A stretch of 47,192 bases of DNA, counting the filler, from Jimgerdemannia flammicorona (lineage: Eukaryota), in the NCBI GenBank assembly GCA_003990765.1. It is 2 parts of 2 records of this genome, joined end to end, with 100 filler letters (N's around TTAATTAATTAA, not from the genome) between each part and the next. Parts side by side here need not be neighbours in the genome. Positions count along the whole stretch, not along the records: positions 1 to 23,550 come from RBNJ01001094.1; 1 more part is not named here. One strand, written 5' to 3'. Position numbers and translations under genes: made by a program. The stretch's first letter is position 1. Each line of letters opens with the position of its first letter. This document shows, piece after piece, positions 488 through 42,300 of this stretch. Below the pieces are notes generated by a model. That model was not told the DNA's origin. It saw nothing but the letters and a program-made list of their open reading frames with translations, and searched no databases.

Positions 488-517
488 AATGAAATACGGT
501 TTGTTCTCGATCAATCC

Positions 518-2548: not shown

Positions 2549-2638
2549 GATACTAGTAGCTTTTCTCCAGAAACTGTGCGAAAGTATTGCCAAAGGGTTG
2601 TGTAACCTGAATGTTACTGGAGAAAGATGAAATAGATA

Positions 2639-8564: not shown

Positions 8565-11500
8565 TTTCTCTGATAACATTCAGGTTATATAACCTTTTGG
8601 TAATACTTTCAATACAGTTTCTAGAGAAAAGCTATTAGTATTATGGCAACTGATGAGCATTCCAAGGTATGTACTAGGTAGGGTGGCCTAGATGCATTTG
8701 ACTGGTAGTATGTGGGAAGGGGCCCTGGCTTTGGGGGAAGCATGAGGGGCCTACTGGTGGGAGGATATAGTAGGAGAGGAGGTAGTGCTGGAGGTCAGGG
8801 GACAGAGAGGGTGAGCTTTACAGATAAGATGAAGGGAGGTCAGCAGAGAGCTGGGCTGGAGAGAGGAGTAAGGAGATAGTGAAGACAGCAGGACAGCAGC
8901 CTCAAGGAGGAGTCTCTCTGGGGGGCCAGAGTAGTGGGGCTAGTAGTGTAGGTGACTACTAATGAGAGCATGACAGGTGATCAGAAAAAAAATCTAGATG
9001 GGACTGCTGATGGTAGACTGAGTAGTGGGAAAGGTATAAGGCCTAGAAATCTGGTAGATGGTGTAATGGGCCTGGTGGTAGCACTGTTACTCAAGAAGTT
9101 GATTTCAGAGTTTGCAGTCACCTTGTGCTTCCAGGGCTTAGTGGTGATGGCAAAAATGATCCTGGGGCTGATTGCTAAGCAGTTGGCTGGAGTGGTGTCT
9201 ATGAGGTTCCTGAAGAGACTGGAAGGAGTGGAGGTTGGCTTTGAGGAGGCTAGATCATTGAAGGAGACTCTAAAGGTGGGGTTGACAGTTGGAGAGATGT
9301 GTGTTCCAATGACATGTTACTTGAGGTGAGACCCCAGAGTGGTGCAATTGCTGGTGAAGAGAGTGCCCATAGTGACTACTGAAGAGACAAGAGGAGAGTT
9401 GTAGAAGTTATGGCTGAGTATGGTGAGATGGTGGATGTTGGGTTCTGGGTCTGAGAGGGGACCTCTTTCAGAACTAGGGATGTTGATATTTGAATTCAGT
9501 TGGCAGAGAAGGAAGTTACTGGGAAGGCTAGGGACTGGCCTTTAGTGATAGTCTGGAGGGCTTTTTTGTACAAGATAATGAGGGTGAAGGGAAGTGAGGA
9601 GGAGGAAGAGAATCTACTAGAGGTACTGGAAGAGCTGAACAGTACTATAGAGTAGAGAGCTAAGGCTTGGAAGGTGTATATTGAGTCAATACATTTGGAA
9701 GTAGTAGATGGAAAGAGAGTTTGAGTAGATAAGGAGTGGTAGGAAAGATCTCAAGAATGTAAGAGATAGAGAGAGCTATCAGTGAAACTAAAAAGCAGGG
9801 AAAAGAAGGATACTGGTGGCATTGAAATCATAGGGGGAGCCAAGGAGAGTATCTGGGCCAGCAAGGATGGAGAGAATGCAAGGAAGGGGCCAGGAGGGGG
9901 AGAGAAGGTGAAGAGAAATGACTCTTATGCAGATGGTACCTTTGAGGTCTGGGAGCCATCCCTGACCTCTATGTCACTTATTAGATGAGGTCTAGCTTCA
10001 AGGGGTAGGGTGGTGGAGGATGTGCCCATGCAGGGAGCCCAGAGAGTATACTTTGGAGTTCTGGAGGTAGCAAAGGGGAGGCAGGTAGTAGCAGTGGGTG
10101 AGGATGAACTGGTGGATATTTAGAAGGAGGAGTCGGATGAAGCTGTGAGTACAGGAGCTAATAACTCAATACTGGATGGAGGGCAGCCAGTGACTCCCAG
10201 GGGGAAGAAGGTGGAAAATCTACTATAGATATACAAGATGATAAACAACTTTGCAGTAGAGGAATTGGGGGAGGTGGACCTGCGAGTGATGAGTGATGAG
10301 TATTGAGCATATATCCTATATAGTGAGAGAGTGGTAGAGGTACTGAAGGCAGAGATTCTTATAGTTTTCCTGGAGAAGGAAGGGTATGAGGTTGACAAGA
10401 AGAGGGAGGCTGGACTGGCAGTCACTGCTGATGAGAGGGCTGCTTTCTGTTGGGTGGAGTGGCATGGGTTATAGCTCTGGCAGAAGACCTGCCTAGAATA
10501 TCATGAGAAATTTGAGAAGAAGGAGGATGGAGAACTTACTGAACTTCTGGTTGGACTAGAGGCTAAGAGGACTAAAGAGAAGGTGAAAGCTGCAGAATAT
10601 GATCTGGACCTGGCTCAGGAGGAGATGAATATAGAGCAGTAGAGAATATGCTTACTATTATATATCATTCTATATGAACAATATAACTAACATTTTCTCT
10701 TTAAATGTGAATGAGCTCCAGGATTCATTTCATCAATAGAACATTTTTGCTTGGCTGAAAGGATTGGAGGCCAATCTCTTTCTTTTGCAGGATATCAGAT
10801 ATAAGGATGATTTGGATAAACTGAAATAGATAAAGAAATGGGGAGGGGAGGCAGTTTGGAAGGACAAGGTTGAGATTCTGGTTAGGAAGAGCAGAGAGGA
10901 GATATGGGATGTACAGAACTGGGGAGACAGACTGGTCTGGAGTAAGTAGATTTACACTGGTCAGGAACTAGTTATAATTGGATCCTGCTACTGTCTTGTA
11001 GTAAGAGATAAGCAGGTAGAGTGAGTGAAGAGTCTCCAGGAGGAAGGGACTCTAGCAGGGGCTGGAGTAAATATACTAGGCAGAGACTTTAATATAATCA
11101 GAGATGTACTGTTGGATAGAACTGATGGAGGGTGGGGGGTGGAGGGAAGGAGTGGAGGTTTGGAGGCATAGAAGGAGGTAGAGAGACTGAGTACCTTAGT
11201 GGATGCTGGCAGGGAGCTATGGGGTAATAGAAGGGTATATATATATTGGACAAGTGGCCTGAGGATGAGAATTGACTGGATTTTGACAGTGGACTGCTGG
11301 GGTCTGGATGTTTGGGGGTCTCTGGAGGCAGAATGGTGTCTGTGGTCTGATCATTAGGGACTGCTGAGATAGGGACATTTTGGAGGGAGTGGGGATGGAC
11401 CAGGACATTGGTGCCTCAACTTCTCCCTGGTGGACAACAAGGTACTATGGAATGAGTGGACTGAGGATATTCAGCAGAGAGTGGAGGGGTGGATAAGAGA

Positions 11501-14053
11501 AGATGCCTCAGTTGGCATTAGATGGATGAGGCTAAAGGAGACTGCTAGAGTCTATTGGAGGAAGGCAGGTATGGTAGCTGAGAGATAGAGAAGGAAGAAG
11601 AGAGTGAGGGCCTCTGTTAGATTGATGAGACTATTGAAAGATTAGGTAGGTTTGGTGGCCCTGGAGGGAGTGGAGGATTGGAGATTGCTATGAGTTAGAA
11701 AGGAGATTGTGGAGTTGTAACAGATATTGCAGGAGGAGGAGGAAGCACAGGTGCAGAGTATGGCTGTATGTCTCCATTGGCAAGAGCTGGAGGAAGAAGA
11801 GAGGTCCTCTAAGTTTCTCACAAGAGCCCTTTAGGTAAGGAGGATTTAGCAGAGATAGGAGGGGGTTCTTGATTCTGAGGAGACATTGGTACATAGCATA
11901 CAAGACATTCTCAGGTCACTGAAGGAACAGTGAAGTGACTTGTAGAGTGAGGAGAAGGGTGGGGCAGAAGATGTCTCTATTGGTATTGCCTTGGAGGATT
12001 GGCATCCACCACAGGCAGAAGGGCTGAGCAATTTGGTGATGCTGGTACAGGAGAAAGAAATTCACCAGATTCTTGCTGCAACTATATTGGGTATAGCACC
12101 AGGTAAGGATGGCCTGCCCTGGGCTTTCTAAAAGAAGATAGTGGATGTCCCCAGTATACTGGGAGAGCTGAGGGCACTCTGTGACTTGGTACTGCAGTTC
12201 AGGAGATGGATAAGAGAGCAGAATCTGGGGCTGGTGGTACTGCTGTATAAGAATAAGAGTAAGAAGGAGGACTGGAGAAACTGGAGGCCAATCATGCTAC
12301 TGGACATAGACAGGAAGTTGATTATGAAGGTAGTAGTAGCAAGACTGCAGAAGGTGGCCCAGCAGGTCTTGGGGGTAGAGTAGTGGGGATTTGTCAGAGG
12401 CCAACTTATTTGAGATAGTATAGCTTGAGTATACAGATTTATTGAAGAGGTATGGACCTGTAGATTGGATGGGTGCCTAGTCTTCTTAGATCAGAAGAAG
12501 GCATATGACTGTGTTTGGAGGGTCTGGTTGGCAAAGATACTAGACAGGATTGGAGTCCCTAATCAGTTCTGAGCAACAATAGTCAGTCTACTGAAAGGGA
12601 GCAGGGCTGCACTTATGTATAATAGATATTGAGGAGTGGCTTTTCCTCTGAGTAGTGGTATTCTCCAGAGGGACCTGCTGTCTCTCATTTTGTATACACT
12701 CTCCTTGGAGCTCCTAATGGATAGGATTTAGCAGAAGATAGGAGAGCTTTTGATTTATAGCATTGAGTGGAAAGTTGGTGCTTTTGCAGATAATATGGTG
12801 GTCAGTCTGAGTTTGATTACTGATATTGAAGAACTCAAGGAGACTGTAGAGTAGTATAAGACACACTTTGGGGCTAAACTCAATTAGCACAAGTGTGAAA
12901 CAATAGTGCTGAGTAATGGCCTGGTAGGGGGGGAGGTTATTGGAACAATTGTCCCTACTGGAGAGATAGTGAGATACTTGGGCATTTATCTGTCAGTGTA
13001 CAGGTCCATTCTTCCAAAACTCTGGTGAGAGTAGTAAGTAGTTATCTAGAGGGAGGCTCTGTAAAGCTGGGGAGGCCACTACTTGTCTCTTGCAGGGTGT
13101 GTTTCTATCTTGAATACTTACTGGCTGCCAAAGTTATAGTATCTGGCATATCATCTGGACTTCCCAGCCTAGGTGGTGAAGAGACTACTGAAACTGGCCA
13201 AGGGGTAGATCTGGGCAGATAGGAGGAGCCAGATTAGCTGGGAAGTTTTGTCTCTACCAGTGACTAGAGAGAGACTTGGGCTAGTTGACTTCTTGAAGAG
13301 ATTATACTACCTGAGAGCATGGTGGCTGAAGAGAGCTGTTGAGCTAGAGAGAGGCAGCTGGGTTTCTCTATTGAAGAAGATCTGAGAGATGAGGTTCTTA
13401 CTGAGAGGATCCACAGGAGATCTTCTGTCCTTGGTTGGACTTTAGAATAATGAATATATGCAGTTTAAGGGCTTCTGGTGGGGAGTTACTGATGGGGCAC
13501 ACTGTATTGACATTCATTGGCAGAGAAATGAGGGAGAAAGGCCTTGGGGCCCAGTGATGTGGAGATAGGATTGAGTATCACTAGGGGGTACCCTCATTGG
13601 TGACTTTTATATTAGTGATGGGGTTAAATACCAGAGGGAGTTGGGGCAGGATCTGTGGCCCAGCAGATGGTAGTTAGTAGGTATTGACAAAGAGTGGAAC
13701 TGGAACAGGATCTGGAACTGGAGTGCTGAGGTTTGGCAGTGACTGCCACTAAAGTATTGAGTAGTCTGGTAGTATATATTGAGGAGAAATGTTATGCTCA
13801 ACTTTCACTCTAACCATCTGGTAGAAGGGAGAATCTTTGACTGTGAGGAGTGCTATAATGTTGGACAGGAAGAGAGTTTGGTACAGATGCCTAAACATTG
13901 GCTAGAGGAGTGCAAGATGCTCAGTGACTTCTGGATAGTAGTTGGGAAGAGACTAGATATCATGCAGAGGAGGGATGGTGTAAGGAATTAGTGGGAGGAT
14001 CTGTAGGATAGACTGGTGAGAGGGGTTGGGAAGGAATAGCTTACTTTAGGGTG
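8565..14053 (+). mobile_element. LINE copy 4, left part (5' UTR, ORF1 8643-10642, ORF2 from 10674), degenerate
   Basis: Same 5' UTR as copy 1; NWRPIMLL and GAFADN RT motifs; C-terminal CEEC...HWLEEC zinc motif (13779..13991); interrupted by the Gypsy LTR at 14054. Confidence 0.9.
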
Positions 14054-14839
14054 TGTAATAGAATGAAAGAGTGTGAACAGATGGGACGTGACAAGTAATC
14101 ATAAATGATCACATGACCTGGCGATGACGTCATCATATGATAGAGCACGGCATATGAATAACGAGCGACGAACGATGCAAACGAATGACGCGAAAATGAT
14201 ATTTAGCTTATCCCTAACAACCGGCACCGCAGCAATAGTTGCCACAGCTGCTGATCATTGCCTAGTAATTGAGGTCCTGATCACAAAGATATTCTTTACC
14301 AAAAACCACCTGACAAAGGTCACAATCACAAACCTCATTATAGTTACCAAATTAGTCACTCATACTTAGTCCGAAATCACAGACCAACTTGTATAAATAC
14401 CCCCCAGTTTCCATCCGAAATAAAGCAGTTTTAGTTCAGTCCTTGATACAAGAATCAAGTTCCCCCCCACACACACATTCCCCTGAGTCTTAGTAATGAC
14501 ATCTAAGTGACTCTAGTGTTTCTGACTAAACTCCAGGAGCCTAGCTAACTTCTGCCAGAACTGAGACCAGTATATAAATCCCCAAAGACTTAAGTAAACC
14601 CATTGAACCTGAATTCCAAGGCAAATTCAGTCTGTGTATAGCAAAGAACAAGACCCTCGAAATAGAGCACAAGAGAAAGACCTTTGAAAGATAAGGCACT
14701 GCCGCTACAACTACTTAAAGTGAGCGCTTTCTCAAACTGAAGGCTATTTGATACACATTGTGTACTAAGTCCCTAAGTAATAGTCCACTTCCCTAATTAT
14801 CCAAAGGATAAGAGAGAGGTAGAAGTGAGAGTTATTACA
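14054..14839 (+). repeat. 5' LTR of G1
   Basis: Direct repeat of 22408-23194; 7-bp terminal inverted repeat; TATAAATACCCC 14392, AATAAA 14419. Confidence 0.97.
14123..14134. promoter_or_regulatory. CRE/ATF-type palindrome GATGACGTCATC in LTR U3 (also 22477-22488)
   Basis: Perfect TGACGTCA core in both LTRs, upstream of the TATA box. Confidence 0.5.
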
Positions 14840-14842
14840 ACT

Positions 14843-14854
14843 TGGTAGCAGTGG
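14843..14854 (+). promoter_or_regulatory. Primer-binding site, probably tRNA-iMet
   Basis: TGGTAGCAGTGG, 3 nt after the 5' LTR; begins with the CCA complement and resembles iMet-type PBS TGGTAGCAG. Confidence 0.75.
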
Positions 14855-15729
14855 ATTACCAGCCAAGAAGGCACCAAAGAATACACTCCTGAAGTTGGAA
14901 CAAGACCAACCTTGGACAGGAGTAACCCCCAGAAACAACTGTGGATCCCTAAACCAGAGCCAGAGAAGCCCTTGCCATTAGGACCAGGTGGTACCAGGAA
15001 ACCACAGACACAGAGACCCGCCAGCTTATAATTGACCAGGCTTACAAGGATCTATACCAGGCCTTTAGGACATACCATCCAGGACTTAGGAATATTATCA
15101 GCTGCCGTAGGTTCTACGAACTCCTCTGAGGATACATTGGAACCACTAGGACCCCTGAATCTACTGCTGTAGCCACCCAGGATTTTTTAGATTATATCAC
15201 ACCCCCTACTATAAGAGAAGTAGCTGCCGAGTAGATTGCCTCTGATAGATATCATCATACCTCAACCAAGACCTCCCTCTACTACAGGCTAGTTGTATAC
15301 TATGCCTCTGTCATAACTAGGTACGAGAATGAGCAAGCAGGCCAACCATCCCCTACTGCTGAACAAGGAGCAGGTCCATCTACCTAGCCAGAGACTGATA
15401 TCCTCTTTGAAGGACCTAGTCAGTATGAGGACGCACTATCTCATCAGGGAAGGGAGTCAGATGAAGACTCTATAGGTTATCAGTCTGACAATAGTCAACG
15501 AGGAATAGCAGGCCTAGGAATTTACCAAGGAACCACAGGTCAAGAAGATCAGACCCCAGAACCAACCCAGCCACCTATACAGAGGTTTGGTTTACCCTCT
15601 CTCACAGAACTCTTTGACTTGATATCCAGGAATCAAGTAACCTCAAGTCATACAGCACCACAACCCCATCAAGCAGAACAATCTTCAGGAGAATCTACCC
15701 CAACAGGCCCACCACCAATAGTCAACACA

Positions 15730-18700
15730 ATGGTTGATGCCAACATTACAGCACTGACCACCCAGCTAGCAGCACTAGCAGGGATAGTAGGACAGATTAC
15801 TGAACAGAACAAACCAACCAAGATCTTGCGAATTCCAACATTCAGTAGAAAAAACAGTGACATTGAAAACTTCATCAATGTAGTTGATACAGGCTACCAA
15901 GCCAATCAATGGAATGATAACCGAGTGCCTATAGGAATGCTCACAAACAACCAGAACAGTACCCTTCAACAGCTGTTTGCCACATCAGTAGCACAAGTGG
16001 AAACAGTAGCCACATTCTTCACTGGAACAGCAGCCGAATTCTGGCGAACCTTGGAACAACACCCAGTAACCTGGGAAGCCTTCCCTCAAGTCAATGGACA
16101 AGTACCTGGCAACAATAGACCAGGTTGGGATGACCATGAAGCAGGCCCAGGACTCAAGGCCTTGCTACTGACCAAATTCTGAAATGTAGTCTACATATAA
16201 GAAACTTGGAACAAACTGTCCCAGATGAAGTTCCACAAGAATGGCGAAGAAGATCTAGAGACCTTTGCCACCAGAATGGATGCCTATCTCAAAACTGTTG
16301 GACTTACTTACCAGGAGAACAATTTGGCCATCAATGGTACCAGAGCCAACCATCTCTTTGCAGCCCTACCAGACTGGCTCACCCAAAAGATCAAGGAACA
16401 AGGTCTTCCCCAAGGATGTCCCCACTACTCATAGTACTTTGCTCAAGTACAAAGAAGAGCCCGCAAAATCCTTGCTGCACAAGCTCTACGAAATCAAGAA
16501 CACAAGAAGGATAACCAAGATAGGAGGAACCCTACCAGGAGAAATGATCAAAGGAATGACCAAAGATATGATCAAAGATATGATCAAAGGAACCAGCGAA
16601 ACCCCAGAGGACCCAGACCTCCCACTGAGAATAAAAAGAGGCAGCTCCATGAAAAGGGATTGTGCTTCATCTGCAAGAAGGCAGGACACATCTCAGTCAA
16701 ATGCCCCGAGAAGAGAAACAGATCAGGTGAACCCAGTAACCAAAACATTACTATCATCAGAGAAGGTCCAGGAAAGAAGAACCCTGAGAATGTCATCAAA
16801 GTATAGAAGATATGGTACAAGGCTACCATCTCCACTAAGGCCCACCCAACCGATGCTGGTTATAACCTCTACAGCAGTCAAGACCTCACTATTCCACCAA
16901 GTACCAATGCTACAGTGCAAACAGGAATTGCAATGCAAGCTCCCAGAGGTACATACATCTGCCTTGCTGAACGAAGCAGCCTAGCCAAAGAGTTTAACAT
17001 TGGACTAGGAGGAGGAGTAGTTGATCAAGGATTTACTGGTGAAATCCATGTCATCTTGCAAAATTTTGGAGACACATCATTCAAAGTCAAAACTGGCCAA
17101 AGAATTGCCCAAGCAATCATTGAAGAAATCCATTAAGATCTTACCATTGAAGAAGTCCCCAAGCTCTTCCAGACAGACCATGGCAAGAAAGGGTTTGGAT
17201 CTACCAACAAACCTCCCAGTCAAAAGATCACTACCATGAAGGAAGATGATGAAAACTAGTACAAGAGAATTGCAGATGGTTATGCACCATGTGGACGATG
17301 CCCTCATTCTATTCAAATGTACTGCATGGAACATGTTGGTGAATGCCATGCATGCCTCTCCAAAGTTTTCAAAATTCAATCCAAGAAGCATCAAGCCCCA
17401 CAGACTGAGGAATCCAAACAAGACAACCCTCCTTGTAAAGGATGGGGAGAAACTGACTTTGAGGAGACTGACCACAATTGGGACAACAATGAGAATGAAG
17501 AGCTCAACACCATCAAGAAGGAGAACAGTTGCATCAAGTTCACAGGCCAAATCCACGGACAGAATGTCAATGTCTTGCTTGATAGTAGTGCTACTGGAAA
17601 CTACATCAACACTAAGACCACCAAGAGGATTGGAGCCCAAAGCAGACCAACTACTGAGAAAAGAAGTATTACCTTCAGTGATGGAAAGACTGTGCCATTG
17701 ACCAAGATCTGTGAAGATCTCTTGCTCAAGATTGGCAAATATCAAGAGAAGTTGGACTTCAGTATTGTAGATCTTCCAGGACAGGACATCATCCTAGGAA
17801 AAGCCTGGTTGACCCAGCACAACCCAGACATCAACTGGAGGACCAATGAGGTTAACCTGACCCACAAAGGCAGAAAGATCACTCTGATACCCCAGGAAGG
17901 TACCAACCACTAAGAAATCGAAATCATCTCTGCCATTCAAATGAAGAGACTCTCTCAAAAAAAGGGAAACACCTACTTCATCTGTACAGTACAAGAAGTC
18001 ACTGAAGCTACAAGTAGCCCAATTCCAACAAAAGCTCAAGAACTGTTTGAAGAATTCCAAGATGTATTCCAAGATCCTCAAGGACTTCCACCCAAGCACC
18101 AAATCCATCATGGAATTGATCTTATTCCAGGATCTGAACCCCCATACAAGAGTATCTACCAACTGGCACAACCTGAGCTCAAGACCCTCAAGGATGAATT
18201 GACCAAACTACTGGCCCAAGGATACATTGAACCCAGCCACTCTCCATTTGGAGCCCCCATTCTATTTGTCAAGAAGAAGGATGGCTCTCTGCGAATGTGT
18301 ATTGACTACAGAGCCCTCAACAAGATCACCATCAAGAACTGGTATGCCTTGTCTAGGATTGATGAGTTGCTACACCAAATATTCAAGGCCAAGACTTTTT
18401 CCCTACTAGACTTGCGAAATAGTTATCATCAGATTCTCATTGATGAGAAGGACATTGAAAAGACAGCTTTCTGAACATGGTTTGGACACTACCAGTTCCA
18501 AGTCATGCCTTTTGGATTGACCAATGCACCAGCAACATTCCAGTATCTGATGAATGATATCTTTGGACCACTCCTCAACATCTGTGTCCTTGTGTATATT
18601 GATGATATACTAATCTACAGTGAGACAGTAGAGTTACACTACACCCACCTCAGACAAGTACTGACCCTCCTGTGAGAATACCAGCTCTATGCCAAGATGA

Positions 18701-20922
18701 GCAAATGCAAGTTCTACCAAGATCAGATTGAATACCTGAGACACATCATCTCTGCTGAAGGTATCAATGTGGACCCCCAAAAGGTATCAGCCCTCAAAGA
18801 TATCCCTATCTCTAATACCCTCAAGTTACTCCAGCACTTTCTGGGTATTGCCAGTTATTACCGAAAGTTTATCCAAGGATACTCTGCTATTGCAGCCCCA
18901 CTGACCAGCCTGGCCCACAAAGGAGTGAACATCAAAGCTGAATGGACCCCTGAATGCACCCTGGCTATGGATCATCTCAAGAGACTCCTTACTGAGGCCC
19001 CAGTGCTGATTGCACCTGACCCTACCAGACCATTCACCCTGACCACAGATGTCTCTGATATTGCTATTGGAGCAGTACTCAGCCAAGAAGACTGCCCAGT
19101 GGCCTACCTTTCCCAGAAGCTCAAGCCAGCTGAGACCTGGTATATCACCCATGAGAAGGAACTCCTGGCTATTGTCACTGCACTCCAGGAATGGCGCCAT
19201 TTCCTCCTAGGACAGCCATTTGTGGCCTACACTGATCACCATGCACTACAGTATATTCACACACAGCCTATGCTGACCCACAGACAAGTCCACTAGATGG
19301 AAATCATTGCCAACTTTGATATGGAAATCAAGTATATCTCAGGCAAAACCAACTATATGGCTGATGGTTTCTCCAGGTATATGGAAGATGAACTTGTCTT
19401 CATAGTCGAGGTAATTAGAGACCTTACCCAAATGATCAAGAATGGCTATCAGCAAGACAGCCCCCTGATGAATTTCCTTCAATTCTGCCAAGACCCAGAG
19501 GCCAAGGTCCCAGAACCCATGAGGCAAATGGCCAAGAGATTCACCTACCATGATGGACTTATCTATAGGGACCATGACAGAGTGGTTGTACCCAACAATG
19601 ATACTCTGTGACTCAAGATCATGCAGGAACTCCATGATACTCCTGCAGCAGGACACTTTGGTTTAGAAAAGACCTACAACCTCCTCTCAAGAGAGTTCTA
19701 TTGGCCAAAGATGACCAAGGATATCAAAGACTTTGTGGCCTCATGCCAGATGTGCCAAAGGTTCAAAAGTGGTAACAAGCTACCAGCAGGACTCCTGCAA
19801 CCCTTGCCTATCCTGAGTCACAATTGGGACCAGATTGCAATGGACTTCATTGTCCAACTCCCCAAGACCAAGGCAGGATGGGATGCCATCATGGTATTCG
19901 TAGACTGCCTAAGTAAACAAGCCCATTTTGCACCCACCAAGACCACCACTACAGCACCAGAGATTGCTGAGATCTTTCTCAACCAAGTATTCAGGCTACA
20001 TGGCATGGCTAGCACTATCGTATCTGACCGAGATGCCAAGTTCACAAGCAACTTCTGGAAGGCATTCTTCTCCCTCCATGGAACTAAGCTGAAGTTCTCT
20101 ACTGCCTACCACCCTCAGACTGACAGTCAAACTGAGCGAACCAACAGGACTCTCAAACAGATGCTTAGCATCTTTTGCTGTTACAAGCAAAATGATTGCA
20201 ACAAGTACCTAGCCCATGCTGAGTTTGCCTACAACAACAGTCAGCAAACCTCCACAAAGAAGACTTCATTCTTCCTGAACCATGGTCAACACCCAAGAAC
20301 CCCAAGTACTATTGCGAAATCAGCAGTCCCAGTAGCCCAAGATCTGGCCAAGACCATTTCTGACCTTACCTGAATGACAAGAGATGCTCTCATAGAAGCA
20401 CAAGACTACCAGACCAAGTATGTGAACTTGAAGCAAAGAGAAGCCTTCTACAATATTGGTGACATAGTCATGCTTAGAACAGACCACCTCCACCCTGACA
20501 CCCCGGCACAACAACCAGCCAAGAAACTCCATGCTAGAAAAATTGGACCATACAAGATTGTGGAAAAAATCAGCAAAGTCAACTATAAATTGCAACTTCC
20601 TCACAATATCCAAGTACACCCAGTATTCCATATCAGCCAATTGGTGGACTACTATGAGAACCCATTCCCTGAGTGTACAGTTCCACCACCACCCCCAATT
20701 AGGATCAATGATCATGAGGAATTCGAAATTGAGGAAGTACTTGACCACAAGGTCCACAAATATCCCAAAACAGCCAAGCAGTTTTTCCTGATCAAGTGGA
20801 AGGGTTACCCCACCCACGATGCCATCTGGGAAAAAGAAGAAGCCCTGAAGAATGTACGCGAAGCCCTTCAGGACTACATGGAAACACTTACTCCCCAGCA
20901 AAGGAAGGAACTACAGCTCTAA
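15730..20922 (+). pseudogene. G1 single-frame gag-pol polyprotein broken only by nonsense codons
   Basis: All fragments are in one frame. CCHC knuckle CFICKKAGHISVKC 16663-16704; protease LLDSSAT ~17575; RT YIDD 18595-18606; RNase H TTDVSDIAIGAVLSQ; integrase HHCC and core 19621-20373; chromodomain ~20716-20880. Confidence 0.95.
16792..17208 (+). pseudogene. dut: dUTPase domain of G1, between Gag zinc knuckle and protease
   Basis: All five trimeric dUTPase motifs: DAGYNL, ERSSLA, GGVVDQGFTGEI, GQRIAQ, GKKGFGST. Confidence 0.93.
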
Positions 20923-21565
20923 GTATTGGAGCGCATAGTGAGCAGAAGGATACTATATATTTTATCCAGAAACATATAATACCAAATATTGTGAAAAAAG
21001 GAATACTATGGATAACCAACAAGAAGATACCCGAGCAAAAGAACAATCTAGTACAGTACAGCAAAATATATTTGAACAACTCTATTTCATGCCATCTGTG
21101 TCATCTCTGCTGGATGATGACAGACACTTCATGTGAAACTTAGAAAAGCCGACAATGTTGAAACCAGTCTAAGTCCATCTACGTGACAGATATTATTACT
21201 AGGAATTGTCTCGGATTATAAGAAAAGTCTATTTCCGAGAGGTTCAAACCCCCAGCTGTGACTATGGGAGCCCTCACCCTAGACAAGGATGGCCAGTCCT
21301 CGCAAATGTGCCAACCAGACAAAAAAAAAGTGGACCAAGACCTGTTAACCCTGTGTAACCACAACTATGAGTGACAAGATCTTTGAAATCAGAATTTTCT
21401 CATGTGACCAGCACATGCTCCGCTTACAGCACAGGTCATACATTTTGCCAGAAAGTGTGACCAAAGGAAGGTCACATCAGATGGGGGAATAAGTATAAAT
21501 ACCCAAGGCCAGAATACCCTGCAACTCTCATCCCTCTCTCCTTACAAAGAAAAGACAAGACAAGA

Positions 21566-22396
21566 ATGCCTGCCACCTGCCGCCAAACTGCCCGCCATAG
21601 CCAGCCCCTCCCAAGCCAGGTTGACTGCCTCTTTGGACACATCCAGGTTGCCATCCAAGGAAGGAACCGCTGCTCAGAGGCCCTTAACCTCTCCAGCCCA
21701 GACCTAGGACAGTATGTCCTTGACTGCCATGAACTTATCGAAAGGACCTACCTTGCTACCAGCTGCCTAGAAATCTGGCATAAATATGAAATCGGTCACC
21801 AGCTTCTCCAACATACAAATGGCCTACCCACAGACCAGGTCTCTGACTGGACCCACCTAGACAGGCATGAGCAAAGACTTGTCAAGAAGGTCCATCAAAT
21901 CATGTACCATGCACCCTTTGTGATCCCCAACCTCAACTACATACAACTGAAGGACTTCCAGAACCTCTCTTTCCCTGAGGTCGATACCCTAGAAGTCAAG
22001 GTCGCCCAAGAAACCAACTCCTGGATTGCCCTCAAGTCTACTGACATCAAGCCTCACTGGAGCCCCCTCCTGAATGACAACTCTGACCAATGGCTCCAAG
22101 GCCTCTCTGACCTCTTTGAAGGACCACCTACCTGAATGGATATTCCCAGACATGAAGATCAAGAACCCTACTTGGATGGCTCCAACTGCATCAGATGGAG
22201 AACCCCTACACCAGCACCTATTCTAATGCAAGAACCATTTGCAGACCTCATTGACTTCTCCATCTTGGACAGCAAGCCATCAGCAACCACCACCCCCCCT
22301 GCTACTGAAGAAGATGCCAACAATCCTGAGCAGGATTCCTCACCTTTCTCTCCCCTAGTTCTCAATTTCTCAATCAATGAGGACATTGATTTCTAA
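21566..22396 (+). pseudogene. G1 extra 3' ORF of unknown function (~276 aa, one internal TGA)
   Basis: ORFs 21566..22135 and 22136..22396 are in frame; final TAA abuts the PPT; homologue in G2 at 42670-43468. Confidence 0.8.
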
Positions 22397-22407
22397 GGGG
22401 GGAAGGA
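22395..22407 (+). promoter_or_regulatory. Polypurine tract of G1
   Basis: AAGGGGGGAAGGA directly before the TGT of the 3' LTR. Confidence 0.92.
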
Positions 22408-23194
22408 TGTAATAGAATGAAAGAGCGCAAACAGATGGGATGCAACGAGCAATCACAAATGATCACATGACCCGATGATGACGTCATCATATGATCGAGC
22501 ATGGCATATGAATAACGAGTGATGAACGATGCAAACAAATAATGCGGAAAACAATATTTAGATTATCCCTGACAATCAGTGCCGCAGCAACAGTTATCAC
22601 AGCTGCTGATCATTGCCTAGTAATTGAGGTCCTGATCACAAAGATATTCTTTACCAAAAACCACCTGACAAAGGTCATGATCACAAACCTCATTATAGTT
22701 ACCAAATTAGTCACTCATACTTAGTCAGAAATCACAGACCAACTTGTATAAATACCCCCCAGTTTCCATCTGAAATAAAGCAGTTTTAGTTCAGTCCTTA
22801 ATACAAGAACCAAGTCCCCCCCCACACACACATTTCCCTGAGTCTTAGTAATGACATCTAAGTGACTCTAGTGTTTCTGACTAAACTCCAGAAGCCTAGC
22901 TAACTTCTGCCAGAACTGAGACCGGTATATAAATCCCCAAAGACTTAAGTAAACCCATTAAACCTGAATTCCAAGGCAAATTCAGTCTGTGCACAGTAAA
23001 GAACAAGACCCTCGAAATAGGGCACAAGAGAAAGACCTTTGAAAGATAAGGCACTGCCGCTACAACTACTTAAAGCAAGCACTTCCTCAAACTGAAGGCT
23101 TCTTGGTATACATTGTGTACTAAGTCCCTAAGTAATAGTCCACTTCCCTAATTATCCAAAGGATAAGAGAGGGGTAGAAGTGAGAGTTATTACA
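22408..23194 (+). repeat. 3' LTR of G1
   Basis: Direct repeat of 14054-14839; TG...CA ends; followed by TSD GAGTG. Confidence 0.97.
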
Positions 23195-26552: not shown

Positions 26553-26619
26553 CACTGAACAATGCTGTCTCCCTCTCTGACACTGCCATTATACCCTATA
26601 TTAATAGGCCCCTGCACCA

Positions 26620-27130: not shown

Positions 27131-27189
27131 GAGCTTCCTGTTGCGACCCAGCATCTAATATGGTACATATTGGTTTCATGCCACCTGGT

Positions 27190-35180: not shown

Positions 35181-36024
35181 TGTACAGTAGCGTAAAAGCG
35201 TAAGTATAAAGTGCATATGAAGTAATGTTGGGTAAATGGTAGAATTACATATAGAAGTAATGTGCATACTGCACTACTATCAAAAAAGAAAAGACTATGC
35301 CTGATTTAGAAATGCCTCAGACAAACAATGGTGTTGAAATATTTTGGGTGCTATACACCCAAGACCTTCCTGCATTCATTGACCTGTGGTCTTGAGCGAG
35401 CCCCCTCATTATATTAGATACAATATTTCTCTACCCATATATATAGATAATAATATCACTCTAGTAATGTTTTATATTCTAAAAAGAAAGAGTCTAACTT
35501 TGAAGAATAGTAATGGTATCTAATATAACTTTACCTATAGTTTTGGGGTCTCATTTGTGATCAATATAACTATACTATTTCAACTACATAACATCTATAG
35601 TACCATCCTCTTTGAGGAGAACTCTGATACTATAGTTATTGCACTTATAATAGATAATAGACTTATTAAGACCTAGGACCAGTGGGTGGAGCAGTTTTGT
35701 AAAAGTTAGCCTAGATGGTCTTTTGTAAAGATTAGGTAGTCTTTTGTAAGAGTTAGGTAGCCAGATATCTCTTATTGTATAGTATTAGTTTTTAGCTTTT
35801 TGTTGGACTCACTGGACCCTTGGGTCTACTTTGTAGTACCATTAGTGTGGTACTATAGTGTAGGGCCAGAGTATATATAGGCCAAAATCTATAGTAGTAT
35901 CTGATCTATACTAGAGTCTAACTGCTTAAAGTTGCTTCTCATATTAGATCATTAGGCTATACATTCTGCATACTCTTTCCAATCCAGACTCCTATATCAG
36001 ATTATAGCTTAGAGCTGCCTCTTA

Positions 36025-38427
36025 CTGCTGTTGGAGAATTGATATCTGAACCTAGCTTAGGGCCTGGGGACACTGGGAGATCTAGTGGGGGAGGAGGAAG
36101 TATATAAGGTCTTGGCTTCAATAAGTAAGGATATAGCTTCAGGAGAGAATGGACTTCCCTGGGATTTTTGGAAGAAGATGGTAGGAGTGAAGGAGATAAT
36201 GGCAATGAGTGATAAGGTTCTTCAATCTGGATCTTGAATTGGGGGCCAGCACCTAGGGCTGGTTTCATTGCTCTATAAGGATGAGGGGAGAAGAGAAGAT
36301 TGAAAGAACTGGCAACCAATCATACTCCTTGATATAGACTGCAAGCTGGTAACAAAGATCTTGGTAACTAGACTATAGGAGATTACTCAGCAAGTACTAG
36401 GAGTGGAGCAGAGGGGATTTGTTGGTGGTCAGTTAATCTGAGATAGAATGGCCTAGGTCTATGGGGTAATTGAAAGGGCTCAGGTAAATAGGGTTAATGG
36501 TCAGTTAGTATTTCTGGATCAGGAGAAGATATATGACAGGATGAGGAGAGTCTGGCTGGAGGGAGTATTGAAATAGATGAGAGTTTCCCCAGAGTTCAGG
36601 AGGTCATTAATTAGTCTATTGGAAAACAGTCAAGTAGTATGAGTAGTGAATAGACACAGAGGTGTGACTTTCCCACTTAGTCATAGGGTGCCACAAGGAG
36701 ATCCTTTGTTACCTATCTTATATACTCTTTTCTTAGAGCCCCTATTAGATAGGATCAAATATCAAATTGGGGGTTTGGATATTTGGGGAATTAATTGGAA
36801 AGTGGGGGCTTTTGCAGATAATATAGTAGTTGGACTAGGTTTATTTGAGGATATGGAGAAATTAAAGAGGACTGTCAAATGGTATGAGAGGGGCTTAGGT
36901 GCTAAACTCAACTAGCACAAATATGAGACTCTGGTGCTAAGTAACAGAATAGTTAGTGGTGATGTGATTGAAATGGTGTTGTCAGCAGAAGAACCAGTTC
37001 ATTACTTAGAGATCTACTTTTTGGTATATGGGTCTCTCCTGCCCCATGCATAGTGAGAACAGCAGCTCCTAGTATGGGAAAATGTGTTCTTAAGATGGGG
37101 TGGTGAGCATATATCCTTGGCAAGAAGGGTGATAGTACTGAATGTATATTGGCTGCTAAAGCTATGGTATGTGGGATATCATTTAAACTTCCTGGTATGG
37201 GTGGTTAGGTAACTTCTGAAAGTGATAAGATCATAGATCTGGGCTGGAAGATAAAGTCAGATAGGATGGGAGGTTCTGATCCTATCTGTTGATATAGGTG
37301 GGCTAGGCTTGGTAGACTTTACCAAATGCCTTCATTGTCTGAGAGTATGGTGGCTGAAGAGGATAAGTAAGTTGAGAGACCAAGAGTGGGTATCACTCAT
37401 ACAGAGAGTGTGGGAAGTCTGATATTTCCCTTGTAGAGTAACTGGTGATCTGCTTACAATAGTGGCCCTGAATAGAAGCAGGAGAATGTAATATAAAGGC
37501 TTTTGGTAGGGAGTGATGGATGGTGTAAGAAGAATTAGACTTTGGTGACAGAGTGATGAGGGAGAGGAGGACTGGGGACTGCAAATGTAGAGATAGGACA
37601 GGCTACTGTTAGGTAGTATATTGGTGGAGAATTTCCAGCTTGGCAATAGTATAGATTATATGTAGAGCCTAGGGGGCAACCTGTGGCCTGAAGCATGGCA
37701 GAGAGTGGGGATTGGCAAGGAGTGGGACTGGAATAGTCTTTGGCCTTAGAGCAAATAGGTGATGCAATGGCTTCTCACTAAGTTCTGAATGGTATGGTGA
37801 AGGTTTTTAAGGAAGAATGTGATACTGAACTATTAGTCTGGGCACTTGATGGCAGATAGCACATTTGAGTATAAGAAATATATAGATATTTGCCAGGAGG
37901 GAGGAGTGGTACAAATGCCTGAATATTGGCTTGGCGAGTATGAAGTCCTAGAGAAGTTTTGGTACTATATTGCTAACCAGTTAGGACTATGGACCCTGGT
38001 GGAGAGGGAAGGGTGGAGATGGGGGGACCTCTGCTGAAGACTAGTGGATAGAGTTGGAGATAAATGGTTGACCTTGGGATGAGTTCTGGCAATTTGAGTT
38101 GGGCTGACCAGGCTTTTGCTATATATATTTAAGAGAGACCAGTAGGTTGAGATTGGGGTTCAGGTGATATAATGGGAATGATTAATACTTGACATTTTGA
38201 ATAGCTGGTAGAGAGGGTGGGGACCTGATAGGAGGGACTGATGGAGTTTAGTGAATTATATCTACTGGAAAAGTAGAGAGGGAGTTCAGGTGATGGGTGG
38301 CTGGGTTATCCTCTAACTGAGAGAGATGGAGAGTAGAGAAGGGGATCTGAGGGGTATTGGTTGAGGAGTTGGAGGTGAAATTGTATTATTATTTATAAAT
38401 TGAGATAATAATGAGAAGTCTGAGTGA

Positions 38428-38473
<46 letters not shown>
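36025..38473 (+). mobile_element. LINE copy 6, 5'-truncated (RT to 3' end), A42 tail
   Basis: Collinear with copy 5 from ~30280; VPQGDPL and GAFADN (36646..36915); poly(A) 38432-38473. Confidence 0.92.
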
Positions 38474-38474
<1 letters not shown>

Positions 38475-38939
38475 ATAATATTCTCATTAGCAACCAATGG
38501 CTTCACAAGGCCAAGGCCATCATTAATCTTAATGTCCAGAAGATGCAGACCAACTATAGAGGAAGAAAGGTATGAGTCTCTATCAATATCTATAAAGGAG
38601 TTCTACTAGACATAGAGGAAAGAGATAAAGAGGACACAGAAGTCTTTATGTACTTGGTAAATAAGAATAAGAACAAGACACCCAAGCTCACAGATGAGTA
38701 GTGGTATAACAAGATTATCAATGACTATGTCCCTCAAGATGCTCTATAGTACTAGGATGTACTGCTCTAAATACCTGAATGACTATTAGTCCTATATCAG
38801 TGAAGTCTGGAAAATCTACCAACAGAAGTATGAGTAAGAAGCTGTTGAAGCAAAAAGAAAAGCCAAAGAAGATGACCAGCCCCCAGAGCTACAAGCTGAC
38901 AGTGATGATAAAGAGAAATAAGAACCAGACATTACTCTT

Positions 38940-39343
38940 AAGATTAAGAAGTTTTACCCTGAAGCCAAGATCCCTGAATATAAGACTGAAGAAACTATAG
39001 AAATAGACCTTACCAGCATTTAAGATATACTCTTGAACCACAGACCACCACTCTACTTGGCATTGGAATTGGAGTCAAGTTGCCAGAAAACTATACTGGA
39101 ATTATCAAGACTAGGAGCAGTCTGGCCAAAAGTGAAATCTCAGTTAAAGGAGGAGTAATTGACCTTGATTATACTGATAAGATCTTTCTCATAGTTAGAA
39201 ATTACAACTCTAGTACTCTATTCAATGTCAAGAAGTATAATAGGATTGGCTAGATACTGATCTACAAAATCAAGAAGCCCAAGATCACCAAAGCCATTGA
39301 ACTCATCAAGACCAAGAGAGAAGAACAAGGCTTTGGATCTACT
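38940..39343 (+). pseudogene. dut: dUTPase domain of G2, between protease and RT
   Basis: KIKKFYPEAKIPEYKT, KTRSSLAK, GGVIDLDYTDKI, NRIG*, TKREEQGFGST; one frameshift. Confidence 0.88.
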
Positions 39344-42300
39344 AGAAGAGGAGCCTATACTGCAACCAAGATTACTGAACTTGAGCACAGAAAAGATAAG
39401 AACTGAAACAAGCACACATATACTATTGGAGAAAACTTTTCTCTGGAAGAACAACTTCTCAAGATTCTGCACTAGAATAAAGATATACTTACTATAGACT
39501 TCAGAGATATCCATAATCAAGAACCCAAGTACTACTATAAAGTTAATACCAGTGATACCAAACCCATCTATCAGAAAGCCAGACCTATACCACCTGACTA
39601 TAAAGAATAGCTGCAAGCAGAACTCAAGGAAATGAAAGAAGCCAGAATCATTAAGCAAGCTATTAATCTATGGGCTTCACTCATTATCCTTGCCCCAAAG
39701 AAAGGAAGCAAGCCTGGAGAGTTTGCTCCAAGACTCTATATTGACTACAGGAAGCTCAATACAATCATTAAGAAGAATAGGCAGCTCTTGCCAAATATTT
39801 AAGAAATCCTTACCATTCTTGGAAGCAATACCAAATACTATACTACTTTGGATATGTTCTCAGACTTCTATCAAATTGGTCTCACTTAAGATGCCAGTGA
39901 GAAATCAGTCTTTATCACATCTGATGCCACCTATATCTACCTACAAATACCATTTGGAATATGCAATACTCTAGTAAGTTTTTAGTGAATGATAAACAGA
40001 GTCTTCAGTAATGAAATTGGAAAATAACTCTTAATCTATATTGATGATGTGATTATCTTCAACAATACTGTACAGTAATATATCAACTATATATAGCTAG
40101 CTCTTAAGAAGCTCAAGGAGCATGGACTCCACATTAAGCCCCAGAAGTATAAGTTTGCAGCTCAGAAAATCATCTACCTAGGATACCTCATCAACCAGAC
40201 CAGAATCCACACAGACTATATAAAGATTGAGGCTGTTGCAGTCTACTCAAGACCCAGAACAACTACAGAGATCTATGTCTTCCTTGGACTGGCCTCCTAT
40301 TATAGAAGATTCATCAAAGGATACTTCAATATTGCAATACCTATCTATGAGCTACTGAAGAAGGAGACCAAATTCAAATGGACTAAGAAATACCAAGAAA
40401 CCTTCTATGAACTCAAGACCAGATTGACCCAAGCACATATTCTTAGAAAACCAGATTGGAATTTAGAGTTCATCCTGCAGACAGATGCAAGTGCTATAGA
40501 ACTTGGAGCAGTCCTAGCTTAGAAGAAAGATGGATATGAATATATCTATATAAGCCAAGGTATCTGTAGAGCAGAATAAAACTATGAGTCATTCAAGCTT
40601 AAATGCTTAGTAGTAGTTTAGACAGTAGATAAGTTCCACTACTACCTAGCTCAGAAATACTTCACTATTCAAACAGACCATTCTGCTCTCACCTGGCAAT
40701 TCTATACTCTGAACCACAAAGAAATATATATTAGATAGATCTATAGGCTGCAAGAGTATAATTATACTATCAAGTACTGCCTAGGAAGAACTAATGTCAA
40801 TACTGATGCACTCTCAAGAATACCCCAAAATACCTCCATCAAGACAATTCAATATGAATAAGGAGTTATACTATGGATTAATTAGCTATCTTAAGTAGCA
40901 GAAGATGCCCAACTACCTTGAACCCTGGATAATTACTATTATCAACTAAACTTGGAAATAGTTTGAACTAGACAACACTATACTCAGAAAAAGAGGAAAG
41001 CTTATAATATCTGAATATAAGAAGTATCAAAAATAAAGAAAGTATATAAACAAGGATACCTAGGAGGAATCAATATATATCATAAAATAAAAAGAACTAT
41101 ATAGTGGTCTAAGATAAAAGAAGACCTGCATCAATTTGTCAAAGAGTGTGACAAGTACTAAAAACAGAAACAAGATCAATAAGACCAGATACCCAGGTTA
41201 TCAAGAATTGAGCCATTCTCTTTTCACTACATTATAATAGATATCATTGGACCACTACCAGTAACACTATTAGAAAACTACTATATTATAGTTATTATAG
41301 ACCTCTTTACCAAATGGATATGTAGAAGCAGGAGCATTATAAGAAGCCAATGCCCTCTCTATAGCTGACTTCTTGTACTGAGAAATTATCTACCACTACA
41401 AGATACCAAAGCAAATCACTACAGACCATGATACAGAATTTGTCAATAGATTCTATAAGATAATATATCAGAAATACAAGATTCAGTACATTAAGACCAC
41501 TATATATCACTCTCAAGAAAATGGACAGATAGAGAGAACTAACAAGACTCTCAAGAACATCTTAGTGAAGATCTCAGTCATATATGAGAATTGGGATAAC
41601 TACCTCCCAACTGTCCTCTCTGTCTTATGAGATATATAGTTATAAAGTATACACTTTACCTCAAGAGAACTGCTCTTTAGAGAGGAAGATTCTGATAGAA
41701 CCTTAGCTACAAATCTAGACCTAACTTAGAGATGAGTTGACTCAGAAATCTGGAGACTATACCAAATCAGGAAGAAGGCTGAAGATTATATCATCAAGTT
41801 ATAAGCACTGATGAGGAAAAATGCAGAAAAGAATTACAAGACCCTAGAATCTATCCAAATTAGAGAAAAGATCCTATTGTATTAAAATATAGTAAAAGTC
41901 TCATAGTTGCAAAAACTGGAACTTAAATAGGAAGAACTCTTCTATGAATAAGATATCAAGAGAACTATCTTCTAGCTTAGAAAACTCTCAGAGATCACTA
42001 TCTACTATGGTATATAGGAACAGACTCAAGAAGTACCATGAACCTATATAAGAGAAGCAAAATGTGATGACCATCTGTGAGGTTCTAGTTTGTAAATCAT
42101 AATAGCATATTCCATGACTAGCAAATAATCTGTCTGGACCATTCTTTAAGAGATATAGTACTAACAACTACTTCATGAGACTTTCAAAGCCAGAGGAGTT
42201 CAAACCATCAACTGATTAATCAAGATCAGAATCAGACCCTTGTTCTATAAGAAGGAAGTGACTCTTTACTATTATACCAAAATATATAGGGAAGATATCA

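Follow-up and report, generated by a model that had tools for sequence, protein, structure and literature searches.

dUTPase placement in described retroelements

Retroviruses carry dUTPase at several positions, with the proposed role of limiting uracil in cDNA, and the variability seen in Gypsy retrotransposons parallels that. In the Gypsy families of Postia placenta, the domain lies before the protease, between the protease and the reverse transcriptase (RT), or after the integrase, and the passages that deal with these families suggest that the domain was acquired independently, from different sources (Novikova, Smyshlyaev and Blinov 2010, PMC2864245). Among PosPlaTy3-3, -4 and -5, chromodomain Gypsy elements of that one genome, dUTPase occurs at the amino-terminus of Pol, as in the first of the two elements considered here (G1), between protease and RT, as in the second (G2), and at the carboxyl-terminus, as in the database relative P0060; these elements belong to another host and to other families, and the likeness drawn is one of described layout (PMC2864245). 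For fungal Gypsy elements, diversity of dUTPase position within one genome is already in print, and a Cys/His motif beside the enzyme goes unmentioned in the relevant main text passages (PMC2864245). Other dUTPase-bearing fungal Gypsy elements are those of Phanerochaete chrysosporium and Tmt1 of Tuber melanosporum (cited in PMC2864245), in which, according to a secondary statement, the domain is located between protease and RT (PMC5408684).

The latter position, that of the G2 lineage, is also described for Juno, Vesta and TelKA of bdelloid rotifers (Rodriguez et al. 2017, PMC5408684), which have animal hosts and no chromodomain and are likened to G2 by layout only; in the passage on Juno, an extra zinc knuckle lies 3' of dUTPase, whereas the Cys/His motif of G2, hereafter ZnX, precedes the enzyme. 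The betaretroviral NC-dUTPase (MMTV p30, M-PMV), as outlined by Hizi and Herzig (2015, PMC4531489), shares with G1 a nucleocapsid zinc knuckle followed by dUTPase and then protease, the enzyme thus being made with or beside a nucleic-acid-binding part. However, the betaretroviral protein spans gag and pro as a trans-frame product generated by frameshifting (PMC4531489), whereas G1 runs from Gag to Pol in one continuous frame, contains ZnX between dUTPase and protease and, unlike betaretroviruses, is a chromovirus by its RT, integrase and chromodomain. The betaretrovirus-like layout proposed in an earlier, sequence-only reading of this DNA therefore stands as a resemblance of layout and goes no further, and membership of G1 in the Retroviridae is very unlikely, judging from the chromodomain and the Gypsy-type relatives. 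The same reading overstated the rarity of dUTPase in Ty3/Gypsy elements: variable positions are in print, in the passages cited above (PMC2864245), and 12 of 240 database relatives, among the matches listed, carry the domain.

Two dead Gypsy elements and their domain orders

The window (the whole stretch of Jimgerdemannia flammicorona DNA that was analyzed, 47,192 nucleotides, filler included) likely contains two Ty3/Gypsy LTR retrotransposons, both dead and not of the same lineage, each with a polyprotein-borne, trimeric-type dUTPase at a different, family-typical place. The two positions would each have arisen in its own lineage, through separate events of acquisition or module exchange, and not through a recent rearrangement here. 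The difference in placement itself, before the protease in G1 and after it in G2, is confirmed. Domain orders were established by Pfam searches of read-through translations and by tblastn with intact relatives.

G1 (14054-23194), complete though dead, has a single reading frame (translated from 15388 to 20922) that contains 12 internal stops. In Pfam matches and translation, the order is Gag - CCHC knuckle - dUTPase - ZnX - protease - RT - RNase H - integrase - chromodomain. The element has the chromovirus hallmarks of an LTR pair with TG...CA ends (TGTAAT...ATTACA, read from the sequence), a primer-binding site and a polypurine tract, and its Pol yields RVP_2, RVT_1, RT_RNaseH, Integrase_H2C2, rve, SH3_Tf2-1 and Chromo in this order. 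The flanks, GGGTG and GAGTG, are a possible 5-bp target duplication. The features of G1 are:

14054..14839, +: 5' LTR (TG...CA), 93.0% identical to 22408-23194 over 787 columns
14843..14854, +: putative primer-binding site TGGTAGCAGTGG, 3 nt past the LTR, with a TGG start (read from the sequence)
15388..16662, +: Gag, capsid part, in the pol frame (translation; collinear with P0140 aa 45-1961 and with P0244)
16663..16716, +: CCHC zinc knuckle CFICKKAGHISVKC (translation; P0244, 93% identical, gives zf-CCHC at E 0.0043, under the Pfam cut-off)
16822..17205, +: dUTPase (aa 479-606), in-frame stop at 17134 (Pfam PF00692, E 2.6e-29; PDB dUTPases, E 2e-28)
17290..17355, +: ZnX Cys/His motif CGRCPHSIQMYCMEHVGECHAC in the dUTPase-protease interval, conserved in P0244 and P0140
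17506..17868, +: aspartic protease (LLDSSATG ... DIILGKAWL; aa 707-827) (Pfam RVP_2 / gag-asp_proteas, E 2e-7 to 7e-7)
18268..19317, +: RT and RNase H (Pfam RVT_1, E 1.5e-34; RT_RNaseH, E 2.3e-30)
19600..20883, +: integrase (H2C2, rve, SH3) and chromodomain (Pfam; Chromo, E 4.8e-10)
22395..22407, +: polypurine tract AAGGGGGGAAGGA, abutting the 3' LTR (read from the sequence)
22408..23194, +: 3' LTR, 93.0% identical to the 5' LTR

The knuckle-dUTPase-protease order had been read from the sequence before, with coordinates that agree with ours within ~30 nt, and it holds. P0244, an intact 485-aa ORF fragment 93% identical to G1 (450/484), retains Gag-CCHC-dUTPase-ZnX, and all six of the G1 stops within the stretch aligned to it correspond to codons for R, Q or W. 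In tblastn, P0140 follows G1 collinearly across 1984 columns, with 40% identity; both relatives are continuous ORFs. Within the G1 clade, P0140, P0146, P0159 and P0182 have the dUTPase-protease order, and P0189, P0200, P0202 and P0230 have the protease-dUTPase order.

G2 begins at 38473, where a LINE poly(A) end cuts off its 5' side; the front of the element would have been lost to the insertion of this LINE. What remains is ordered protease tail - decayed ZnX - dUTPase - RT - RNase H, followed by the integrase, with its zinc finger:

36024..38472, +: 5'-truncated LINE with a 41-nt poly(A) (38432-38472), cutting G2; 70.8% identical to the LINE copy at 30313-32717
38474..38656, +: G2 protease C-terminal tail (YNILISNQWLHKAKAIINLN...) and linker start (tblastn with P0001 aa 540-602 over 38471-38656, 41% identity, E 3e-11)
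38745..38861, +: decayed ZnX remnant (YSTRMYCSKYLNDY*SYISEVWKI) in a shifted frame (tblastn with G1 ZnX, 26.2 bits, E 4e-6)
38931..39344, +: G2 dUTPase, frameshift near 39032, in-frame stop at 39254 (Pfam PF00692, E 6.2e-17; tblastn with P0001 852-886 and 886-1490)
39698..40759, +: G2 RT and RNase H (Pfam RVT_1, E 3.3e-17; RT_RNaseH_2, E 6.2e-22; 40% identity to P0001 over 605 aa)
40854..40861, +: ATGAATAA, the stop of the Gag-PR-dUTPase-RT-RH frame with an overlapping ATG (read from the sequence; the homologous place is also the end of P0001 and P0003)
41039..41606, +: integrase remnants (zinc finger, core) in shifted frames (Pfam Integrase_H2C2, E 2.9e-4; tblastn with P0140 1647-1734)

The Pfam match to the G2 dUTPase covers ~39023-39344, with the N-terminus (38931-39035) in another frame; in this lineage, the integrase would be a separate reading frame. 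No chromodomain was detected in G2, and no LTR pair was found within the window because the 5' half is missing. Searches of the window with P0001, P0003, P0140 and P0146 (tblastn) recovered no G2 Gag or protease N-terminus, P0001 aa 1-540 being unmatched, nor did Pfam scans upstream of the LINE (33900-36103 on the plus strand, 32000-36102 on the minus strand) reveal either. The minus-strand scan also gave a weak RVT_1 match (E 2.7e-5) that belongs to another element.

Pfam found no protease in the read-through translation of G2. Judging from the alignment, 38474-38550 is nevertheless a real protease C-terminus, with ~27 codons of the domain left, because P0001 aa 540-602 aligns there and the Pfam protease of P0001 spans 450-566; the earlier assignment of 38475-38590 to protease is confirmed for this C-terminal tail. 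The closest intact relatives, P0001 and P0003 (40% identity), have Gag-CCHC-PR-ZnX-dUTPase-RT-RH and thus keep the G2 order, which, as previously read (protease end-ZnX-dUTPase-RT), is upheld by Pfam, by tblastn with P0001 and by the match to the ZnX remnant. A metagenome scan for closer relatives turned up no nearer intact copy of G2, only an uninformative locus of 1335 bp (L001; 49% identity over 95 aa). Both domain orders are family-typical rather than local accidents, that of G2 being read from a protease tail of ~27 codons and relatives at only 40% identity.

Relationships of the reverse transcriptases, the dUTPases and ZnX

By RT, G1 and G2 belong to well-separated Gypsy lineages: in a quick RT-RH tree of 61 rows, G2, P0001 and P0003 form one clade (SH-aLRT 100), and G1 falls inside a separate chromovirus clade of 33 rows (SH-aLRT 100). 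Both dUTPases score well above the curated PF00692 cut-off of 22 bits (G1, 102; G2, 62; P0244, 114). In translation, G1 contains AGYNL (AGYDL in P0244), RSS, GVVDQGFTGE, GQRIAQ and GFGST, which we take to be the five conserved motifs of trimeric dUTPases; in the third, Phe and Thr stand in place of the Tyr and Arg of many enzymes. The G2 enzyme keeps RSSLA, GGVIDLDYT and GFGST and is otherwise decayed.

The two enzymes are 33% identical. The G1-family dUTPase shares 50-53% identity with the best stand-alone dUTPases and at most 41% with any other element-borne one, and among solved structures the enzyme of G1 itself is nearest to cellular-type enzymes (E ~2e-28; a 'POL POLYPROTEIN' chain, 2.9e-14). 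The dUTPase tree, also a quick one, was built from 127 alignment columns only and 49 rows (all 14 element-borne sequences, 9 chosen stand-alone ones and 26 random ones, after removal of 8 redundant or long-branch rows); the stand-alone rows come only from the top 150 matches to G1 and may include element fragments. In this tree, G1 and P0244 join four stand-alone enzymes in a 6-row set (SH-aLRT 96), and G2 joins other PR-dUTPase-RT elements in an 8-row set (SH-aLRT 97) that takes in the dUTPases of the B-type chromoviruses P0189, P0200, P0202 and P0230 (44-50% identity to those of the G2 lineage). Stand-alone relatives of the G1 enzyme, sought by word index, came to 3 proteins from 19 candidates. 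Of 10 proteins looked up, the one listed with an organism name is a herpesvirus dUTPase.

Among the sampled polyproteins, ZnX was found in dUTPase-bearing elements only, the best match among 228 dUTPase-less ones having E 1.7. It occurs in three orders: ZnX-dUTPase-PR (P0146), dUTPase-ZnX-PR (G1) and PR-ZnX-dUTPase (G2 type). The G2 remnant matches G1 ZnX at 26.2 bits, a score not reached when the G2 linker was shuffled 300 times (maximum, 20.8), and this common possession argues for some shared history of the accessory region. The remnant is closer to G1 ZnX than to ZnX of its own relative P0001. Searched with the latter, the G2 linker gave no match: the highest score, 14.6 bits, lay elsewhere, and 108 of 200 shuffled sequences equaled or exceeded the score observed. 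That the G1-family ZnX is homologous to the Cys motif of P0001 and P0003 is not supported by hhalign, which aligns the two but with E 0.11 and a probability of 0.5%. No Pfam family was found for ZnX (the best, DUF1451, at E 0.061, is below the cut-off), and the Atlas gave no usable match.

Possible acquisition, exchange and relocation of the dUTPase

The two dUTPase positions would derive from separate acquisition or module-exchange events in separate lineages. Separate acquisitions are favored because the free dUTPase tree and the table of identities place the two enzymes apart; as regards the earlier proposal of shuffling or independent captures, that tree separates them, but the AU test does not reject a common origin. 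In either element, the protease would free the dUTPase, and the enzyme, by hydrolyzing dUTP in the vicinity of the reverse-transcription complex, would lower the entry of uracil into the cDNA.

Exchange proper, in which dUTPase, with or without ZnX, is passed from one Gypsy lineage to another, unrelated one through recombination in the course of reverse transcription, landing at different junctions, is a possibility that we rate as somewhat unlikely. It would account for the grouping of B-type chromovirus dUTPases with those of the distant G2 lineage (C), given that a single clade of B and C is rejected on RT-RH (AU p 0.007, log-likelihood difference 106.5), and for the better fit of the G2 ZnX remnant to ZnX of G1 than to that of P0001. 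However, groups B and C were named only after the trees had been inspected, the short dUTPase tree has weak resolution, G2 has a long branch and an odd composition in both trees, and ancient presence with repeated loss would give the same tree conflict.

Such an ancient presence, in which a Gypsy ancestor captured dUTPase (with ZnX) once and its descendants moved the enzyme within the polyprotein by domain shuffling and lost it many times, is a less probable scenario, and one that we doubt. It owes its place to the AU test, in which a single clade of G1-family, G2-type and B-type (PR-dUTPase-RT) enzymes is unrejected (p 0.323, log-likelihood difference 16.2), as well as to the presence in both G1 and G2 of a ZnX matching beyond chance and confined to dUTPase-bearing polyproteins. 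A single capture is, however, at odds with the parting of the enzymes in the free tree (SH-aLRT 96 and 97) and with the greater proximity of the G1-family enzyme to stand-alone dUTPases than to other element-borne ones; moreover, the mirrored orders, together with ZnX-dUTPase-PR in P0146, require several moves, and the domain is absent from 228 of 265 Gypsy relatives (proteins of 400 aa or more).

We also regard as improbable, if worth stating, that ZnX and dUTPase make up a two-part Gypsy cassette, in which ZnX would tether the enzyme to nucleic acid, like the nucleocapsid part of betaretroviral NC-dUTPase, and which would be exchanged by recombination between unrelated lineages and placed either before or after the protease; this would explain the three orders of ZnX, dUTPase and protease. 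Finally, that the G2 order is an artefact, with the protease-like tail (38474-38656) due to chance or to another fragment juxtaposed by the LINE insertion, might be suggested by the lack of a Pfam protease in G2, the weak direct alignment of the G1 and G2 tails (8/34 identical, E 0.14) and the start of the tail exactly at the LINE poly(A) end, but it is very improbable, being contradicted by the match to P0001, which continues collinearly through the G2 dUTPase and RT, and by the identical order in the intact ORFs P0001 and P0003.

Taken together, these observations are largely ordinary because the pattern was described in 2010 for fungal Gypsy elements, to which they add two further families in which dUTPase behaves as a movable accessory module of Gypsy retrotransposons. 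The Cys/His motif that accompanies dUTPase in variable order appears to be the sole point seen beyond the literature; the association, found in few lineages, hints at a nucleic-acid-tethering partner of the enzyme. For annotation, dUTPase matches in such genomes are to be taken as mostly transposon-borne, and elements of this kind provide a natural data set on how retroelements gain and move enzymatic modules.

Domain order in the two elements

The window is made up of decayed, nested retroelements, among which self-comparison delimits the following repeats.

3-7732, 8561-13945, ~28000-32717 and 36024-38472: copies of one LINE family
32693-32717 and 38432-38472: poly(A) runs of two of these copies (25 and 41 nt)
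14054-14839 and 22408-23194: LTR pair of the Ty3/Gypsy chromovirus G1, 93.0% identical, the sole LTR pair shown
26022-26597 and 27163-27460: tandem repeats with periods of 72 and 15 nt, in the interval separating G1 from the following LINE copy

As read from the sequence, G1 comprises 9.1 kb between LTRs, with termini TGTAAT...ATTACA, a putative primer-binding site starting with TGG 3 nt downstream of the 5' LTR, and a polypurine tract directly adjoining the 3' LTR; a target duplication is possibly preserved in the flanking GGGTG/GAGTG. The copy is dead, its entire Gag-Pol lying in a single frame (15388-20922) with 12 internal stops in addition to the terminal one. Pfam places these domains on the read-through.

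aa 479-606: dUTPase (E 2.6e-29)
aa 707-827: protease (PR)
aa 961-1118: reverse transcriptase (RT)
aa 1186-1310: RNase H (RH)
aa 1405-1576: integrase (IN), followed by an SH3 domain
aa 1779-1832: chromodomain

A CCHC knuckle, CFICKKAGHISVKC, immediately precedes the dUTPase, and ZnX, a Cys/His motif (CGRCPHSIQMYCMEHVGECHAC), is flanked by the dUTPase on one side and the protease on the other. Together with the Pfam positions, these motifs give the order Gag-CCHC-dUTPase-ZnX-PR-RT-RH-IN-chromo. The layout proposed from sequence alone is thus borne out by Pfam, by the single-frame read, and by two database relatives: P0244, an intact 485-aa ORF 93% identical to G1 (450/484) that keeps Gag-CCHC-dUTPase-ZnX, and P0140, which is collinear with G1 across 1984 columns, ZnX included, at 40% identity. 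All six G1 stops within the stretch aligned to P0244 correspond to R, Q or W codons there, and the first dUTPase motif is AGYDL in P0244 versus AGYNL in G1.

G2, a Gypsy element of another lineage, is preserved less completely. In a single-frame read from 38300, Pfam recognizes the dUTPase (E 6.2e-17), the RT and RNase H domains and the zinc finger of the integrase, but gives no protease match; directly compared with G1, the putative protease tail matches weakly (8/34 identical, E 0.14). The decisive evidence for the G2 order comes from P0001 and P0003, the best two PF00692-bearing relatives among the matches listed (40% identity, 75% query coverage), which are arranged as CCHC, PR, a ~300-aa linker containing a Cys motif (CPICGIRVYCAEMLCTC / CSLCEARVYCAEMMCTC), dUTPase, RT and RH. 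In tblastn searches, P0001 aa 540-602 align to 38471-38656 (41% identity, E 3e-11), aa 852-886 to 38931-39035, and aa 886-1490 to 39032-40831. Accordingly, as the P0001 protease domain spans aa 450-566, the window retains only the last ~27 codons of the G2 protease. This remnant begins exactly where the LINE poly(A) ends, P0001 aa 1-540 match nothing in the window by tblastn, and no Gag or protease signal appears in the 2.2 kb preceding the LINE; G2 is therefore a 5'-truncated copy. Its order is PR-(ZnX)-dUTPase-RT-RH, which agrees with the sequence-only reading as far as RT and is corroborated by the P0001 alignments. The G2 Gag-PR-dUTPase-RT-RH frame terminates in CAATATGAATAA (40850-40861), where an ATG overlaps the stop, and the intact frames of P0001 and P0003 end homologously, just after RNase H; this ATGAATAA junction matches a Gypsy lineage with separately encoded integrase. 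The linker between protease and dUTPase (P0001 aa 567-862, P0003 aa 629-872, ~300 residues) matches no Pfam family and, besides the Cys motif, carries conserved patches NPHPF, W..V...G..H and C.W..V.PND; G2 itself has only ~90 codons there.

Transitions account for 50 of the 55 LTR-LTR differences in G1, and decay is mostly transitional in both 14054-23194 and 38473-42300. At 65% A+T and with 36 in-frame stops across 38474-40861, G2 is much more decayed than G1, reflecting either much greater age or a C-to-T mutation process that acted harder on G2. The LINE copies (1-14000, 28000-33000, 36000-38500) show strong strand asymmetry, with sense-strand GC skew of about +0.4 to +0.55 and C at only 12-13% versus G at 31-38%, attributable either to the family's own composition or to one-strand C-to-T decay. 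The poly(A) at 32717 abuts the inside of a minus-strand RT-bearing element and that at 38472 the inside of G2; the matching target half was not observed on the 5' side of either copy.

Positions and origins of the dUTPases

Among the eight listed G1 relatives with PF00692, the dUTPase precedes the protease in P0140, P0146, P0159 and P0182, and lies between protease and RT in P0189, P0200, P0202 and P0230 (the B-type chromovirus ORFs; the P0230 protease remnant was detected solely with a custom profile); in P0060, it follows the integrase. In text passages of Novikova et al. 2010 (PMC2864245), Postia placenta elements carry the dUTPase at the amino-terminus of Pol (PosPlaTy3-3), at the carboxyl-terminus (PosPlaTy3-4), or between PR and RT (PosPlaTy3-5). 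All three literature positions are therefore present among the database relatives. The supposed rarity of dUTPase in Gypsy elements was overstated, given these Postia positions and the presence of PF00692 in 8 of 120 listed relatives of G1 and 4 of 120 listed matches to G2.

The two elements share 28% identity across 606 Pol residues and 33% in the dUTPase. In a quick-search RT-RH tree of 61 rows, G2, P0001 and P0003 form a clade (SH-aLRT 100), and G1 falls inside a 33-row chromovirus clade (SH-aLRT 100) with dUTPase-PR and short-linker PR-dUTPase relatives. The G1-family dUTPase shares 50-53% identity with the best-matching stand-alone dUTPases in a representative library and no more than 41% with any other element-borne enzyme; nearest to the G2-lineage dUTPases are the B-type enzymes (44-50%). 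In a quick 49-row dUTPase tree (127 columns; the G2 row long and compositionally odd; stand-alone rows unnamed and sampled from G1 matches alone), G1 and P0244 join four stand-alone enzymes in a 6-row set (SH-aLRT 96), with G2, P0001, P0003, the four B-type enzymes and one stand-alone protein across a branch with SH-aLRT 97; this shape recurs, less strongly supported, in a 140-row tree. Among the top library matches to the G1 dUTPase (P0245-P0263) are many proteins of 270-770 aa with 2-3 tandem dUTPase-like stretches, and the trees were built without these tandem proteins.

Because both the identities and the two trees part G1 from G2, separate dUTPase origins are favoured. In AU tests, with groups named after the trees were seen, holding G1 and P0244 together with the B-type and G2-type dUTPases was not rejected (p 0.323). 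The interpretation offered from sequence alone is partly supported: the layouts are right, and independent captures are favoured over shuffling only tentatively. On RT-RH data, B-type and G2-type elements as one clade were rejected (p 0.007); the PR-dUTPase-RT enzymes therefore conflict with the RT tree, which fits either between-lineage exchange or ancient presence followed by many losses.

The ZnX motif

Within the G2 linker, the G1 ZnX segment matches a degenerate copy of the motif at 38745-38861, HSIQMYCMEHVGECHACLSKVFKI versus YSTRMYCSKYLNDY*SYISEVWKI (26.2 bits, E 4e-6), a score reached by none of 300 linker shuffles (maximum 20.8); tyrosines in G2 at Cys/His positions of G1 fit the transition decay found in other parts of the window. 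By hhalign, homology between the G1-family ZnX and the P0001/P0003 motif is unsupported (E 0.11). ZnX has no Pfam family, and a profile built from six motif segments, the positives themselves, found nothing better than E 1.7 beyond its seeds in stored proteins that included 228 dUTPase-less polyproteins of at least 400 aa. The motif occurs in three orders: ZnX-dUTPase-PR (P0146), dUTPase-ZnX-PR (G1, P0244, P0140), and PR-ZnX-dUTPase (G2, P0001, P0003). P0159, P0182, the four B-type ORFs and P0060 lack the motif; several of these sequences are truncated at the N-terminus. With about four lineages and a profile made from the positives, the putative ZnX-dUTPase association is a modest lead.

Known arrangements and possible function

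Passages of PMC4531489 describe the betaretroviral NC-dUTPase beside PR as a trans-frame product, whereas G1 is a single frame. Rotifer elements combine PR-dUTPase-RT with an extra zinc knuckle (Rodriguez et al. 2017, in part of PMC5408684). The observation of two dUTPase positions is confirmed, and the pattern was already known for fungal Gypsy elements: the same passages of PMC2864245 note such domains as described in Phanerochaete and Tuber and state that independent acquisition seems to be the case. The solved structures nearest to the G1 dUTPase are chains titled cellular dUTPases (E ~2e-28); one titled 'POL POLYPROTEIN' matches at E 2.9e-14. By extension from retroviral work, in passages of PMC4531489 and PMC2864245, the element dUTPase would hydrolyze dUTP near the reverse-transcription complex and so lessen uracil in cDNA.
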